Origin: Escherichia coli
GTDB taxonomy: Bacteria > Pseudomonadota > Gammaproteobacteria > Enterobacterales > Enterobacteriaceae
Length of the DNA stretch: 64,000 nucleotides
Direction: 5' to 3' (one strand)
Assembly: GCF_016903815.1 (NCBI RefSeq)
Contig: NZ_CP069973.1
In this document: positions 44,001 through 50,000 of the stretch, in pieces
Layout: the number at the start of each line of letters is the position of its first letter
How positions within the stretch are numbered: position 1 is the stretch's first letter
Program-made: the position numbers

Positions 44001-47000
44001 CAGTAGAGTGAACATCAAGAGCAATCAAATTACCCAAAGGTGCCAGCGCACGCTGTAGTTCCCAACCTACCTGCCCTGTTTTGCCGAAAAGGAGGATATT
44101 CATTACTGGCGGCCCTCATAGTTCTGTTCAATCCACGATTGATAGGCACCACTTTTCACATTATCAACCCATTTTGTATTGGACAGGTACCATTCCACTG
44201 TCTTCCGAATCCCGCTCTCAAACGTTTCCTGTGGTTTCCAACCCAATTCGCGGCTAATCTTCTCAGCATCAATCGCATAACGGCGATCATGTCCCGGGCG
44301 GTCGGCAACATAAGTAATTTGCTCACGATAAGATTTCTCTTTCGGTACAATCTCATCCAACAAATCACAAATAGTGAGCACTACATCGATGTTTTTCTTT
44401 TCGTTGTGTCCACCAATGTTATAAGTTTCACCCGCTTTACCTTCGGTTACGACGGTATATAACGCACGCGCATGATCTTCAACATACAGCCAGTCACGAA
44501 TTTGATCCCCTTTGCCATAAATAGGTAATGCCTTACCTTCCAGAGCATTAAGAATTACTAGTGGAATCAATTTTTCCGGAAAGTGATAAGGACCGTAGTT
44601 ATTCGAACAGTTAGTCACAATGGTCGGTAAACCATAGGTACGTTTCCACGCGCGGACTAAATGATCGCTGGATGCTTTTGATGCGGAATAAGGGCTGCTT
44701 GGCGCGTAAGCTGTCGTCTCAGTAAATAAGGGTAATTCTTCGTTATTATTTACTTCATCTGGATGAGGCAAATCACCATAGACTTCGTCAGTAGAAATAT
44801 GATGAAAACGGAAGCTATTTTTCTTGTCGCTATCAAGAGCAGACCAGTAATTGCGAGCGGCTTCCAAAAGGACATAAGTACCAACAATATTGGTTTCAAT
44901 AAATGCCGCAGGACCTGTAATTGAACGGTCAACATGGCTTTCAGCAGCCAGGTGCATCACTGCATCCGGCTGATGCTGAGCAAAAATCCGTGCCATTGCA
45001 GCAGCATCGCAAATATCCGCATGTTCAAAAATATAGCGTTCAGAATCAGAAACATCAGCAAGTGATTCCAGGTTTCCGGCGTACGTTAATTTATCGACAT
45101 TAACAACACTATCCTGCGTATTATTTATAATGTGACGAACTACAGCAGAACCAATAAATCCTGCGCCACCAGTAACAAGTATCTTCACTCTTTTATTCCA
45201 TATTACTTCAGAGCATGCAGTGAAATAAGCGGCTCTTAGTTTGATTAATAGAGGTATTAATGCACGCTACCGCCCCTGGCTTTACTGCTACCAGTGCACT
45301 GCATGCATGTCTACGATGTGACGAGCGTTACCCACTCGCGCTTAGCTCGAAAAATTCAAACGCTAATTGTCTTACCAATCCGCTCTGGAAACAAGGAAAA
45401 TCCTGGAAAACTTTGACTAAAATCCTATTGCTAACTCGTTGTTATTCTGATTGTTTATATAAAACAACGGCAGGAATATTCGCAGCAAATTACTTTCGCC
45501 ACGAATCTTCACTGCCGTTATAATTTTCTTATCAACCGTTACATTCGGTCAGATTTTCATTATTCGCTTAACAGCTTCTCAATACCTTTACGGAACTTCG
45601 CCCCTTCTTTCAGGTTGCGCAGTCCATACTTCACAAACGCCTGCATATAACCCATTTTTTTACCGCAGTCGTAGCTGTCACCTGTCATCAGCATGGCATC
45701 AACGGACTGTTTTTTCGCCAATTCAGCAATGGCATCAGTCAGTTGAATACGTCCCCATGCACCAGGCTGAGTGCGTTCAAGTTCCGGCCAAATATCGACA
45801 GAAAGCACATAGCGACCAACGGCCATGATGTCTGAGTCCAGTGTTTGCGGCTGATCCGGTTTTTCGATGAATTCAACAATGCGGCTGACTTTACCTTCGC
45901 AATCCAGCGGTTCTTTGGTCTGAATAACAGAGTATTCAGAGAGGTCACCCGGCATACGTTTTGCCAGCACCTGGCTACGACCCGTTTCGTTGAAACGTGC
46001 AATCATGGCAGCAAGGTTGTAGCGCAGCGGGTCGGCGCTGGCGTCGTCGATCACAACGTCTGGCAGCACCACGACAAATGGATTGTCACCAATGGCGGGT
46101 CGTGCACACAAAATGGAGTGACCTAAACCTAAAGGTTCGCCCTGACGCACGTTCATAATTGTCACGCCCGGCGGGCAAATGGACTGTACTTCCGCCAGCA
46201 GTTGGCGCTTCACGCGCTGCTCAAGGAGAGATTCTAATTCATAAGAGGTGTCGAAGTGGTTTTCGACCGCGTTCTTGGACGCGTGAGTCACCAGGAGGAT
46301 TTCTTTGATCCCTGCAGCCACAATCTCGTCAACAATGTACTGAATCATTGGCTTGTCGACGATCGGTAGCATCTCTTTGGGTATCGCCTTAGTGGCAGGC
46401 AACATATGCATCCCAAGACCCGCTACCGGTATAACTGCTTTTAAATTCGTCATTATTTTCCTACCTCTAAGTGGCTGATAGTGCGTAAATTATTGTCATA
46501 GGTTAGCCAAACGGTATGGCTATATACCAAGCATAACTTTGATTAAACCTTACGATAACACTACACACCATCAGCATCTGGGTTACTCGGATTACTCGGA
46601 AATCCACATACTGATAATTTAATCAGTACCTCATTCCGAATAATCGTAGTCCAACCTGGTCCTTTTTTCTCTGACTCGTCTGCATTACTCAGAAACAAAC
46701 GTTATGTCGTCTTTTTTGGCATGGACGAATTCATACTGCAGAGTTCGATCCAGACCTTGCGACAGCGTATACGGTGCCACAAAACCTGAAGAATGCACTT
46801 TCGTTGCGTCAAACTGTGTTGTTGCGCAGAATTTTTTCACGCGCACAGAGCTGACAGCGTATTTTTTGCCCGTAATTTTGCTCAGGATATCAAAGCAATA
46901 TCCACCCAGCATTCCTAGTGGGTAAGGCAAGTGCATAGAAGGGATCTTTTTGTTCAGGCTTTGTTCAACTTCAGCAACCAACTGGTTCATGTTCAGGTCT

Positions 47001-50000
47001 GGCTTATCAACATAGTTATAAACCTCATAACCTGCGGCAACATTCTTCAGTTTGTACTTGATAAACTCAACAATGTTTCCAACATAAGCCATGGACTTAT
47101 AGTTAGTCCCTGCGCCCACCATCATAAACTTGCCGCCAGCGATCTGTTTCAGCAAGTTATAGACGTTACCGCGGTTGCGTTCACCGAAGATAACGGTAGG
47201 ACGGATGATAGTTAATGAACGTTCTGTTGGTGCTTTGTTATACCATTCACGTAGCACTTCCTCTGCCTGCCACTTACTTTTGCCGTAGTGGTTGAAAGGA
47301 TCGTGTGGATGGTTTTCGTCAGGGTTGTGTTTGTTCAAACCATAAATAGCAACGGAACTGGTAAAGATGATATTTTTAACGCCATTTTTTTCCATGGCCG
47401 CCAGCACATTGCGGGTACCCTGAACGTTGACATCATAATAGAGAGAAGTAGGGCTGACGTCATCGCGGTGTTCCGCTGCCAGTAGTACAACAGTGTCAAA
47501 ACCGGCTAACGCCTGGTCGAGTGCCTGTTGATCACGAACATCGCCAATCTGTGTGATTTCTGGATAAAAGTGGCTCTGCTGTTTGTCCAGGTTCTTGATA
47601 TTAAAGTCAGCAATTGCCGTTTCAAGTAGTCGGGTTCCTACGAATCCGGAAGCTCCTATGAGCAAAACGTTATCGTTCATAAATCACTTTAGTCTGGTTG
47701 TTACGTAAGAAACACAAGATAAAGATGAGTACCTTCCCTGAGTAGTCAATGCTGCCCAGCCCCAGCTTTAACAGTTAGTGTGAGGATTATAATCTTTTAG
47801 AACATTATATCCAGTAAGTTTATGAATGGTCGCAAATCTACTCTCTCCGTTCCGGCAATCTAAAGTTAATCTTTTCCACATTAACAATATGGTGATTAAT
47901 CCTGTCGATATCGACGGAGCTTTGCCCCGTTTCATTCACTGCATGAATATTCGCAAGTGAAAGCAGCGTCTCACGCTTTGCCATAAAGACGCCGCGAACG
48001 TCTTTGCGCATGTCGAAGTTCATGCGCAATGCGGCTCCAACTGAGGATTCCTGCATCACTTTGATATTACGCATAAAAAGATGCTGCGGTTTATTGTGAA
48101 GCTCCAGCGAGGCACGCTTCATCTCAATGTTAGTCAGTGCCACAAAGGAGGCAGCATTCCCGGCGGAGATTTGGATGCCGCGCAATTTATAAGCAAGATG
48201 GGTGTTATCCAGTTGAATATTATTCACTCGGAAATTTTGCGGTATCGAGAGATATTTGCCTTTAATTACCCCATAGCCGATTAACATCCCGGCGCTATTA
48301 ATCATTTCAATATTATCAACCACGAAATTGTCACAACCGTAAATAGCAACTGTCGCGTTATCAATGCCTGCTTTCTTACTGAAATCCGGCGTGATATTGC
48401 GGGCTTTGATATTACGAATAACAAAATGTTTACCATTTTCAACATGGATCAACTGCCGACAATCCGATCCCGTGATATTCGCCACGACAAAGTTTTTCAC
48501 TGCCTGATCTTCTGGGTAATTATTACCGTAAGTGCTTCCCGCAAGGCCTATGCCGATGCCCCAGTTGATTTTGCCGTTGGTACAGTTGATGCGCTCGATG
48601 ATGTGATCGGATATCAAAATATCGCGGTCGTTAATCGCCACGTTCCATTCAATGGCATCGCCCTGTAAGTCGCTGAACTTACAATTGGTGATGTTGGCAC
48701 CGATTATCTGGTTATGAAATCCTTGGCGTAAGATGGCGTAATTAGCGTGGCTGACAGTGAGGTTATCGATGGTCAGGTTACGCATGACCCGTTTGTTTTT
48801 GCCGCCGATATAGATCTGCGTCACCGGGCCAAAGCCGCTCATCGTCAGCCCTTTGATGGTGCAGTCAGAACCACGCACATCCAGGGTGATGTTATGCATA
48901 CTGCCGCCCTTCTCCCCTGTCACCTGGCTGCCGTCCTGTAAGACAAATCGCCCTCTGCCATTGCCGCGCAGGCTTCCAAGGATGTGTAACGTTTTACCTG
49001 CAGGAATGAAGATGCCGGTGTTGATATTGTCACAAACCAATCCGGCAGGCACGACGACTGTTTGCCCTTCGCTGAAGGCTTGTTTAAATGAGGCGATCCA
49101 GTCGTGTGGGTTGTAGTCGTTAATGTTAACGCTTTGTCGGGCGGGAAGTGCACGGGCGAAAGGGGTATGGAGGAAGGCAAGCGCCGAGCTTGCCGTCAGG
49201 AAGGTGCGTCGGGAGAGTTTTTTAAATGGCATACGTTCTCCTCTATAAAGCTTGCAGCAAGCTGGCGAGTTCTCGATTGATCACCTGCTGGTTAAAATCG
49301 TGTTCAACTTTTTCGCGCGCGCGTTTGACGACCGGAGCCAATTTGTCGGTGTCCAGTTGGCTAAATGCCGCCAGGCGTTGCGCCAGCGCGCGAGCATCGT
49401 TCTCAGGCACCAGCCAGCCGGATTTATCGGCCTCCACCAATTCCGGTATTCCGCTATGCAGAGTAGAAACCACCGGAATGCCGACCGCCATCGCTTCCAT
49501 CAGCGCTACCGGAATGCCTTCCATATCGCCATCCGCGCCCGTTACCGATGGCAACAGGAAGACATCCGCGTCGTCGAGCATCGCTTTCACTTCGTGGCTC
49601 GGTTTAAAGCCCGGCATCTCTACCACATCTTCCAGTTGATATTGTTCGATGAGGGTACGCAGGCGTCGTTCCCACGGGCCAATGCCGAGGATGCGATAGC
49701 GAAATGCCATGCCCTGCTCTTTCAACTGACGGCAGGCTTCGATCGCCACATGCAGGCCTTTTTTTTCAGTTAAGCGTGCGACGGAGATGATTTCCAGCGG
49801 CGTTGCGGGCGCTTTCACCGGACGCGGGCTAAAGCGCGTCATGTCCACGCCCATACGCGATACGGCGATTTTTTCTCTGGGGCAGCCCATTTTTTGCAGC
49901 CTTCCGGCCCACAAATCGCTTATCGGTAACATCAGGTCGCCACGGCGAAACAGTTGCTGATATTCGGGAGTGTAATGGTTGAGCACTTCCCGACTGGAAA

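Follow-up and report, generated by a model that had tools for sequence, protein, structure and literature searches.

[quoted passage not shown]

The window analyzed here, a stretch of 64,000 nucleotides from Escherichia coli contig NZ_CP069973.1, carries an O-antigen gene cluster between wcaM and gnd with a sugar 4-epimerase gene near each end. The features of this region, in the direction of transcription, are as follows:

47838..49232, minus strand: wcaM, the last colanic acid gene and upstream flank (NF007517, 1015 bits against a cut-off of 808)
46471..47823: gnu-bearing segment of 1.35 kb that replaces ~142 bp of the K-12 galF-wcaM spacer
47786..47813, minus strand: sigma-70-like promoter match (10 of 12 positions, from a consensus scan only) in the wcaM-gnu gap
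46685..47680, minus strand: gnu, ATG start, 331 aa, UndPP-GlcNAc 4-epimerase
45560..46453, minus strand: galF (TIGR01105, 685 bits against a cut-off of 659)
45267..45274, minus strand: ops element GGCGGTAG in the JUMPStart region that precedes rmlB, an exact match in the galF-rmlB gap
41715..45188, minus strand: rmlB, rmlD, rmlA, and rmlC, the dTDP-L-rhamnose pathway (from ORFs, PGAP names, and PF00908 for rmlC)
35606..41708, minus strand: O102-specific block of 28 to 32% GC (from Pfam/NCBIfam matches, PGAP, and the composition profile), comprising the next six genes
40458-41708, minus strand: wzx (PGAP "O102 family")
39436-40464, minus strand: WaaS/CpsH-family glycosyltransferase (Pfam/NCBIfam match)
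38325-39455, minus strand: wzy (PGAP "O102 family")
37396-38328, minus strand: GT2 glycosyltransferase (Pfam/NCBIfam match)
36347-37399, minus strand: GT4 glycosyltransferase (Pfam/NCBIfam match)
35606-36343, minus strand: second GT2 glycosyltransferase (Pfam/NCBIfam match)
34548..35567, minus strand: GalE-family 4-epimerase, predicted Gne type, ATG start, 339 aa, 33.6% GC, last gene before gnd
33047..34453, minus strand: gnd, flanking the O-antigen cluster downstream (TIGR00873, 767 bits)

The same gene order is found in the PGAP annotation of an identical genome, and our ORF listing places the two epimerase genes on the minus strand at precisely the coordinates given in an earlier, sequence-only reading of this DNA. 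Both products match PF01370 (NAD-dependent epimerase/dehydratase; E values of 1.2e-30 for gnu and 3.6e-59 for the gnd-end gene), and both ORFs cover their models end to end with NAD and catalytic motifs intact; a check for pseudogenes was accordingly negative for either one. gnu lies upstream of the ops element and outside the O-unit operon; the gnd-end epimerase gene lies downstream of ops and closes the operon that ops controls. Additional ops-like matches at 3261 and 58257 were rejected as functional elements because their positions are not comparable, the latter being inside wcaI.

Positions 34400 to 47800 of the window are 100% identical in 105 genomes, in which PGAP assigns wzx and wzy to the O102 family. 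[quoted passage not shown] Among complete genomes, O102 was found in many human clinical isolates. The rhamnose that the sequence-only reading placed in the O unit is accounted for by the rmlBDAC genes, and the GalNAc that it expected agrees with the published composition; Table S2 of Cunneen 2013 lists two GalNAc for O102, one in the main chain and one in the side chain, with no GlcNAc. An O unit with GalNAc in both places and without GlcNAc therefore needs both gnu and gne. No gene for a WecA- or WbaP-type initiating transferase was recovered between galF and gnd in the profile matches or the PGAP annotation.

In a blastn comparison of the K-12 locus with the window, K-12 homology stops at position 46470 and resumes at 47824, on either side of the gnu-bearing segment. 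The galF-wcaM gap of K-12 is only 174 bp and holds no gene in the K-12 annotation, while O157:H7 has a 331-aa gene at this site, which bears out the background statements of the sequence-only reading on the two strains. The match at 47786..47813 is a weak candidate that could possibly be gnu's own promoter, promoter-like sites being no more frequent in the wcaM-gnu region than in shuffled sequence.

The gnu product is identical at 330 of 331 residues (99.7%) to the protein encoded at the same wcaM-galF site in O157:H7, the single, conservative substitution being I112 in O102 versus V112 in O157:H7, and the gene has 99.2% DNA identity to O157 strains. Its translation contains the NAD motif G9xxG12xxG15 together with S108/S109 and Y132xxxK136. 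The protein falls below the GalE equivalog model TIGR01179 (70.6 bits against a cut-off of 262.3), and its best relatives among solved structures are sterol and other SDRs (E of ~1e-17), with GalE at ~47 bits; PGAP names it N-acetyl-alpha-D-glucosaminyl-diphospho-undecaprenol 4-epimerase. The O157 enzyme, Gnu, epimerizes UndPP-GlcNAc to UndPP-GalNAc but does not act on UDP-GlcNAc (Rush 2010, as reported in Cunneen 2013), and because the O102 protein is 99.7% identical to this characterized enzyme we regard its identity as settled: judged by sequence, the product of 46685-47680 is Gnu and not a GalE-family Gne. The gene had been read as a gne whose product provides UDP-GalNAc to start the O unit, an assignment since withdrawn by its original authors; Cunneen 2013, whose authors include those who coined the name, cites Rush 2010, calls the earlier UDP-GlcNAc epimerase hypothesis "fatally flawed," and renames the gene product Gnu, with which the PGAP name agrees.

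The epimerase at the gnd end is only 26% identical to Gnu. We classified both enzymes by pairwise identities, model scores, and scores against PDB entries. The gnd-end protein passes the GalE models (451.8 bits for TIGR01179, cut-off 262.3; 461.6 bits for NF007956, cut-off 394), aligns without gaps to K-12 GalE at 53% identity, and reaches 391 to 402 bits with the solved structures of GalE, GALE, and Bifidobacterium GalE-family proteins. The suggestion that both genes belong to the GalE family thus holds for the gnd-end gene and not for gnu, and the further suggestion that the two enzymes may differ in substrate specificity is supported, since by their low identity and by the GalE model, which the gnd-end protein alone passes, they belong to different specificity classes.

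Residues K84, S124, Y149, K153, N179, N199, and C299 are present in the gnd-end epimerase. The last of these is the gatekeeper, where K-12 GalE has a bulky Tyr299, and K84/N199/C299 is the pocket signature of human GALE; the protein also gives a higher score with 1LRK, the structure of the Y299C mutant of E. coli GalE, than with the wild type. Cys occupies the gatekeeper position in 116 of the 120 nearest homologs, a set gathered through shared 5-residue words that could enrich for the AECWS motif. Group 1 enzymes, confined to UDP-Glc/Gal, carry a bulky residue as gatekeeper, which is Tyr299 in E. coli and Leu in trypanosomes; Cys299 stands at the aligned position here, and a small residue at 299 with K84 and N199 retained is instead the pocket of group 2, whose members also act on UDP-Glc/Gal (PMC10482301). 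The Y299C exchange confers UDP-GlcNAc activity on E. coli GalE, and human GALE without Cys307 loses this activity (PMC10482301; Cunneen 2013), although Cunneen 2013 describes GalE and Gne as not yet separable by sequence alone. Because Cys299 is shared with human GALE and with the products of E. coli gne genes accepted as such, we predict that the gnd-end epimerase should accept UDP-GlcNAc/GalNAc as well as UDP-Glc/Gal.

At 99% or higher DNA identity the gnd-end gene is present in 106 genomes, always together with the O102 cluster, and the closest protein encoded elsewhere is 65% identical; its public names are all "UDP-glucose 4-epimerase GalE." Of 5426 genomes, 5391 carry the housekeeping galE, as do all 60 O102 chromosomes listed in a search with a chimeric wzy+galE query. 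These 60 chromosomes show the arrangement that Cunneen 2013 uses for annotation, with the gnd-end gene in the O-antigen cluster and the gal-operon galE elsewhere. No other candidate source of UDP-GalNAc was found in the O102 cluster among the profile matches and PGAP names, and the likely UDP-GalNAc maker, to judge from these features, is the product of the gnd-end gene and not that of the galF-wcaM gene. Cunneen 2013 lists gne as missing from O102, and among the 115 serogroups just seven gaps, O102 included, are left unexplained; the O102 sequence used there may have lacked the gnd-end gene, or the gene may have gone uncounted. We think it probable that this galE-annotated gene is the gne scored as missing, a group 2 enzyme by its Cys299 that would supply UDP-GalNAc for the side-chain GalNAc.

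A UDP-GlcNAc 4-epimerase (Gne) encoded between galF and wcaM was the original published assignment of the O55/O157 gene (Wang 2002), one database member is still named "UDP-N-acetylglucosamine 4-epimerase," and the title of Guo 2007 implies in vitro UDP-hexose activity of the identical O86 Gne1. We nevertheless consider this assignment very unlikely, given the conversion of UndPP-GlcNAc and the lack of activity on UDP-GlcNAc reported from Rush 2010, the failure of the protein against the GalE model, and its distance from the cluster's own GalE-family enzyme; moreover, in Cunneen 2013 the presence or absence of gnu fits the expectation from O-unit structure in 104 of 115 serogroups. The same survey counts 10 cases in which gnu is present though not predicted, and such genes "in excess of need," whose presence alone is no proof of use, would be compatible with one of the two epimerase genes here being a decaying or nonfunctional remnant. 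To this we give almost no credence: both ORFs are full length with intact motifs, 754 genomes carry gnu, and the above 106 carry the gnd-end gene, at 99% or higher DNA identity, and the O102 unit, as listed in Table S2 of Cunneen 2013, needs both functions.

A pure GalE at the gnd end, acting on UDP-Glc/Gal, would be in keeping with the uniform public naming, with the scoring of gne as missing in O102 (Cunneen 2013, Table S2), and with the use of UDP-Glc/Gal by group 2 enzymes (PMC10482301). Its gatekeeper is Cys and not Tyr, however, and a pure GalE would be redundant because O102 strains already carry a Tyr299 housekeeping galE; it would also leave the cluster without a candidate source of UDP-GalNAc, and in both position and signature the gnd-end gene agrees with the gne genes accepted for O107/O117 and O128. 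We consequently view a pure GalE as unlikely and retain the Gne-type prediction for this enzyme.

We hold it to be highly probable that the O102 locus relies on two functionally unrelated SDR 4-epimerases for the GalNAc at two positions of the O unit. UndPP-GlcNAc is made by WecA, which is encoded elsewhere, and this reaction would be the first step. Gnu would then invert the lipid-linked sugar at C4, yielding UndPP-GalNAc as the first, main-chain residue, by analogy with the 99.7%-identical O157 enzyme and presumably through the transient NAD+-dependent 4-keto mechanism of the SDR Ser/Tyr/Lys triad. In the gnd-end enzyme, the small Cys299 would open the sugar pocket and permit interconversion of UDP-GlcNAc and UDP-GalNAc, and probably of UDP-Glc and UDP-Gal too; the UDP-GalNAc so formed would be the donor for the side-chain GalNAc, added by one of the four glycosyltransferases of the cluster. 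Housekeeping GalE (Tyr299, gal operon) stays for galactose metabolism.

The value of these results lies mainly in annotation, and they involve no new enzyme class or mechanism. The statement that a gne between galF and wcaM makes UDP-GalNAc should give way to the lipid-linked mechanism of Gnu, and automatic GalE labels in O-antigen clusters can mask the real UDP-GalNAc supplier. If our assignment of the gnd-end gene is true, the gnu/gne rule loses one exception, and the Cys/Tyr gatekeeper becomes usable for reannotating galE genes of O-antigen clusters. For O102 itself, the proposal offers a complete, testable account of the origin of both GalNAc residues.

Among known systems, Gnu of O157:H7 (Z3206, clade D of Cunneen 2013) has the same length, wcaM-galF site, and orientation as its O102 counterpart, and the likeness extends to its role, since the O102 O unit, too, must begin with GalNAc; the two differ at residue 112 and in serogroup background. 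The WbpP/WbgU/TviC enzymes (GnaB, UDP-GlcNAcA 4-epimerases, clade B) share with the two O102 enzymes the extended SDR superfamily and C4 epimerization of an N-acetylated hexose. A GnaB/WbpP type was rejected for the gnd-end protein (89 to 96 bits against WbpP/WbgU; 75.9 bits for the TviC model, cut-off 760) and for the gnu product, which has no match to these proteins at E ≤ 1e-5; no wbpO/gnaA partner adjoins either epimerase gene in the PGAP annotation. K-12 GalE has the same fold and length as the gnd-end protein, together with the catalytic S124/Y149/K153 and N179/N199/K84, but its gene sits by galT/galK, whereas the O102 gene (34% GC) sits in the O-antigen operon and is an addition to, not a replacement of, the gal-operon galE.

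The Gne (clade A) genes of O107/O117 and O128 share with the gnd-end gene the K84/N199/C299 signature and the last slot before gnd; the identity is 59 to 62%, and only 58 to 62% when a Yersinia enterocolitica homolog is included. This homolog has the same signature, Cys included, and lies in a polysaccharide gene cluster before a Wzz-domain gene; its neighbors, with Wzz and PfkB (gsk-like) domains, are arranged as one would expect for a Yersinia O-antigen locus. In all of these Gne-type genes, as in the O102 gene, GC is as low as in the O-unit block. A further parallel is O86:B7, in which GalE, Gne1 (= Gnu), and Gne2 (= Gne) make up the same set with the same logic, serving two GalNAc of which one is initiating; there gne2 is the first gene after galF, whereas the Gne-type gene of O102 is the last before gnd, and both GalNAc are in the main chain, whereas O102, according to Table S2 of Cunneen 2013, has one in the side chain. 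The flanking of one O-antigen cluster by gnu and a probable gne is an arrangement that is already documented and ordinary.

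Two NAD-dependent 4-epimerase genes had been proposed from sequence alone to flank an O-antigen cluster, and we recovered both, precisely at the positions given, as open reading frames (ORFs) of 331 and 339 amino acids (aa) that match PF01370, the NAD-dependent epimerase/dehydratase family (E 1.2e-30 and 3.6e-59, respectively). In 5'-to-3' order on the minus strand, the locus reads as follows:

47838-49232, minus strand, wcaM
46685-47680, minus strand, 331-aa ORF (gnu)
45560-46453, minus strand, galF
after galF, minus strand, rmlB, rmlD, rmlA and rmlC, in that order
after rmlC, minus strand, wzx, a WaaS/CpsH-family glycosyltransferase gene, wzy, and GT2, GT4 and GT2 genes, in that order
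34548-35567, minus strand, 339-aa ORF
33047-34453, minus strand, gnd

By sequence, this is the O102 O-antigen locus, because 105 complete E. coli genomes, in which PGAP labels wzx and wzy "O102 family", match window positions 34400-47800 at 100% identity; one of these strains is named O102:H6. GC content is 28 to 32% from wzx through the 339-aa ORF, versus 44 to 55% in the flanks.

The gene between wcaM and galF is of the Gnu type. Its product is identical to the O157:H7 protein from the same site at 330 of 331 residues (V112I), and PGAP names it N-acetyl-alpha-D-glucosaminyl-diphospho-ditrans,octacis-undecaprenol 4-epimerase. Membership in the GalE family was ruled out by a score of 70.6 bits against the NCBI GalE model (cutoff, 262.3); the nearest solved structures are sterol-4-alpha-carboxylate 3-dehydrogenase and other SDRs (E about 1e-17), with GalE structures reaching only about 47 bits. 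The GxxGxxG (G9-G15), S108/S109 and Y132xxxK136 motifs are intact. UDP-hexose activity in vitro was reportedly ascribed to the Gnu protein in earlier work, by Wang in 2002 and, going by a title, by Guo in 2007. The sequence-only reading had called this gene a gne that supplies UDP-GalNAc for initiation, a view that is outdated: the O157 gene was originally named gne and assumed to be the UDP-GalNAc source for WecA (Cunneen 2013), but according to Rush 2010, as related in Cunneen 2013, the enzyme is inactive on UDP-GlcNAc and, acting after WecA, turns the lipid-linked UndPP-GlcNAc into UndPP-GalNAc. Its gene accordingly received the new name gnu, in clade D (Cunneen 2013), and later reviews and structure papers have adopted this model. 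We found gnu in 1,314 of 5,426 complete genomes, with DNA identity of 95 to 100% for nearly all copies. As had been claimed, K-12 has no gene here, its galF-wcaM spacer being just 174 bp; in the alignment, some 142 bp of the K-12 spacer are replaced by the gnu-bearing segment (46471-47823). This segment is upstream of the ops/JUMPStart element (45267-45274), and a promoter-like site is weakly indicated within the wcaM-gnu gap.

The 339-aa ORF, last before gnd, scored 451.8 bits against the GalE equivalog model, above the cutoff of 262.3. The suggested difference in specificity between the two enzymes holds at the level of prediction. It aligns with K-12 GalE without gaps (53% identity) and retains K84, S124, Y149, K153, N179 and N199, with Cys299 at the position of K-12 Tyr299; the human GALE counterpart is Cys307. 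The bulky Tyr299 limits E. coli GalE to UDP-Glc/Gal, a Y299C mutant gains activity on UDP-GlcNAc/GalNAc, and human GALE without Cys307 loses it; the group 2 pocket is K/N/C, and that of WbpP is G/A/S (Cunneen 2013; PMC10482301). The ORF scored slightly higher against the Y299C structure 1LRK than against wild-type GalE (395.5 versus 390.8 bits) and only 89 to 96 bits against WbpP and WbgU, consistent with this gatekeeper-pocket rule. Among its 120 nearest database homologs, position 299 is Cys in 116 and Val in 4, although these were picked by shared words, a selection that may favor the local motif around that position. The gene is O102 specific: 106 genomes carry it at 99% identity or more. 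Its next-best DNA matches in E. coli either are partial or reach about 67 to 70% identity, and the nearest proteins are 62 to 65% identical. Every public name for it is "UDP-glucose 4-epimerase GalE". Clade A (GalE/Gne) specificity cannot be read from sequence with certainty; for annotation, a clade A gene that sits in an O-antigen cluster should be taken as probably gne when galE lies elsewhere (Cunneen 2013). The K-12 galE sequence is present in 5,391 of the 5,426 genomes, and a chimeric query of O102 wzy and K-12 galE mapped to two separate places in 60 of 60 O102 chromosomes among the matches listed. Because housekeeping galE is thus separate from the wzy locus in all of these chromosomes, O102 strains have three predicted 4-epimerases.

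The O102 polysaccharide is listed with GalNAc at one main-chain and one side-chain position and without GlcNAc (Cunneen 2013, Table S2), which agrees with the earlier expectation of GalNAc in the O-unit and means that O102 needs both gnu and gne. The same table scores gnu as "present and correct" and gne as "missing". Despite this score, a Cys299 GalE-family gene was present in the cluster of every O102 genome examined. The 339-aa ORF, with its Cys299, is thus an obvious choice for the gne scored as "missing", and the same explanation might hold for other serogroups scored gne "missing" in that table. The side branch has two residues (Liu review). WecA and four glycosyltransferases fit a five-sugar O-unit, and the rml genes account for rhamnose. 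For the GT4 glycosyltransferase (36347-37399), the best named NCBIfam matches were to two Campylobacter GalNAc transferases, PglH at 116.7 bits and PglJ at 61 bits, and each score falls well short of its cutoff; this enzyme may use UDP-GalNAc for the side-chain residue.

WecA makes UndPP-GlcNAc, and this would be the first step of the proposed pathway. [quoted passage not shown] One cluster glycosyltransferase would add the side-chain GalNAc, and Wzx, Wzy and ligase would complete assembly.

Elsewhere in the window, wzzB, the O-antigen chain-length regulator gene, is split at about codon 124 (fragments 28484-29093 and 30402-30774) by a 1.3-kb IS3-family element (29094-30403) resembling IS1203/IS629. 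This element has ORFs 108 aa (HTH_Tnp_1) and 296 aa (rve) long, and its 25-nt terminal inverted repeats begin with TGAACCGCCCCGGG. It is missing from strain 2779, which is identical otherwise, and its junction with wzzB was found in none of 5,426 complete genomes. Because wzzB is interrupted, modal control of O102 chain length may be lost in this strain. An IS200-type transposase gene (32389-32898; Y1_Tnp, E 5e-38) lies between gnd and ugd; it is named IS200C by PGAP in identical genomes and is shared with strain 2779. By annotation in that sequence-identical strain, about 430-5890 and 10040-10420 form an island encoding a GTPase, a dynamin-family protein, an RdcB-family protein and a patatin-like phospholipase; after these come CP4-44-like genes, among them a frameshifted cbtA toxin gene adjoining cbeA.

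The pairing of gnu with a probable in-cluster gne in O102 is already known in kind, because it is documented in other serogroups and the O102 cluster has been published (JX087966); the sole increment is the reassignment of the O102 "galE" as a likely gne. The combination of a clade A gne in the cluster and a gnu on the upstream side of galF has been described for O86, O130, O125 and Yersinia pseudotuberculosis O6/O7, and O86:B7, like O102 strains, has three 4-epimerases. A Yersinia enterocolitica homolog of the 339-aa ORF has the same Cys and lies in a polysaccharide gene cluster, where adjoining genes encode Wzz and PfkB (gsk-like) domains. The accepted gne genes of O107/O117 and O128 share with the O102 gene both the last slot before gnd and the pocket signature, at 59 to 62% identity.
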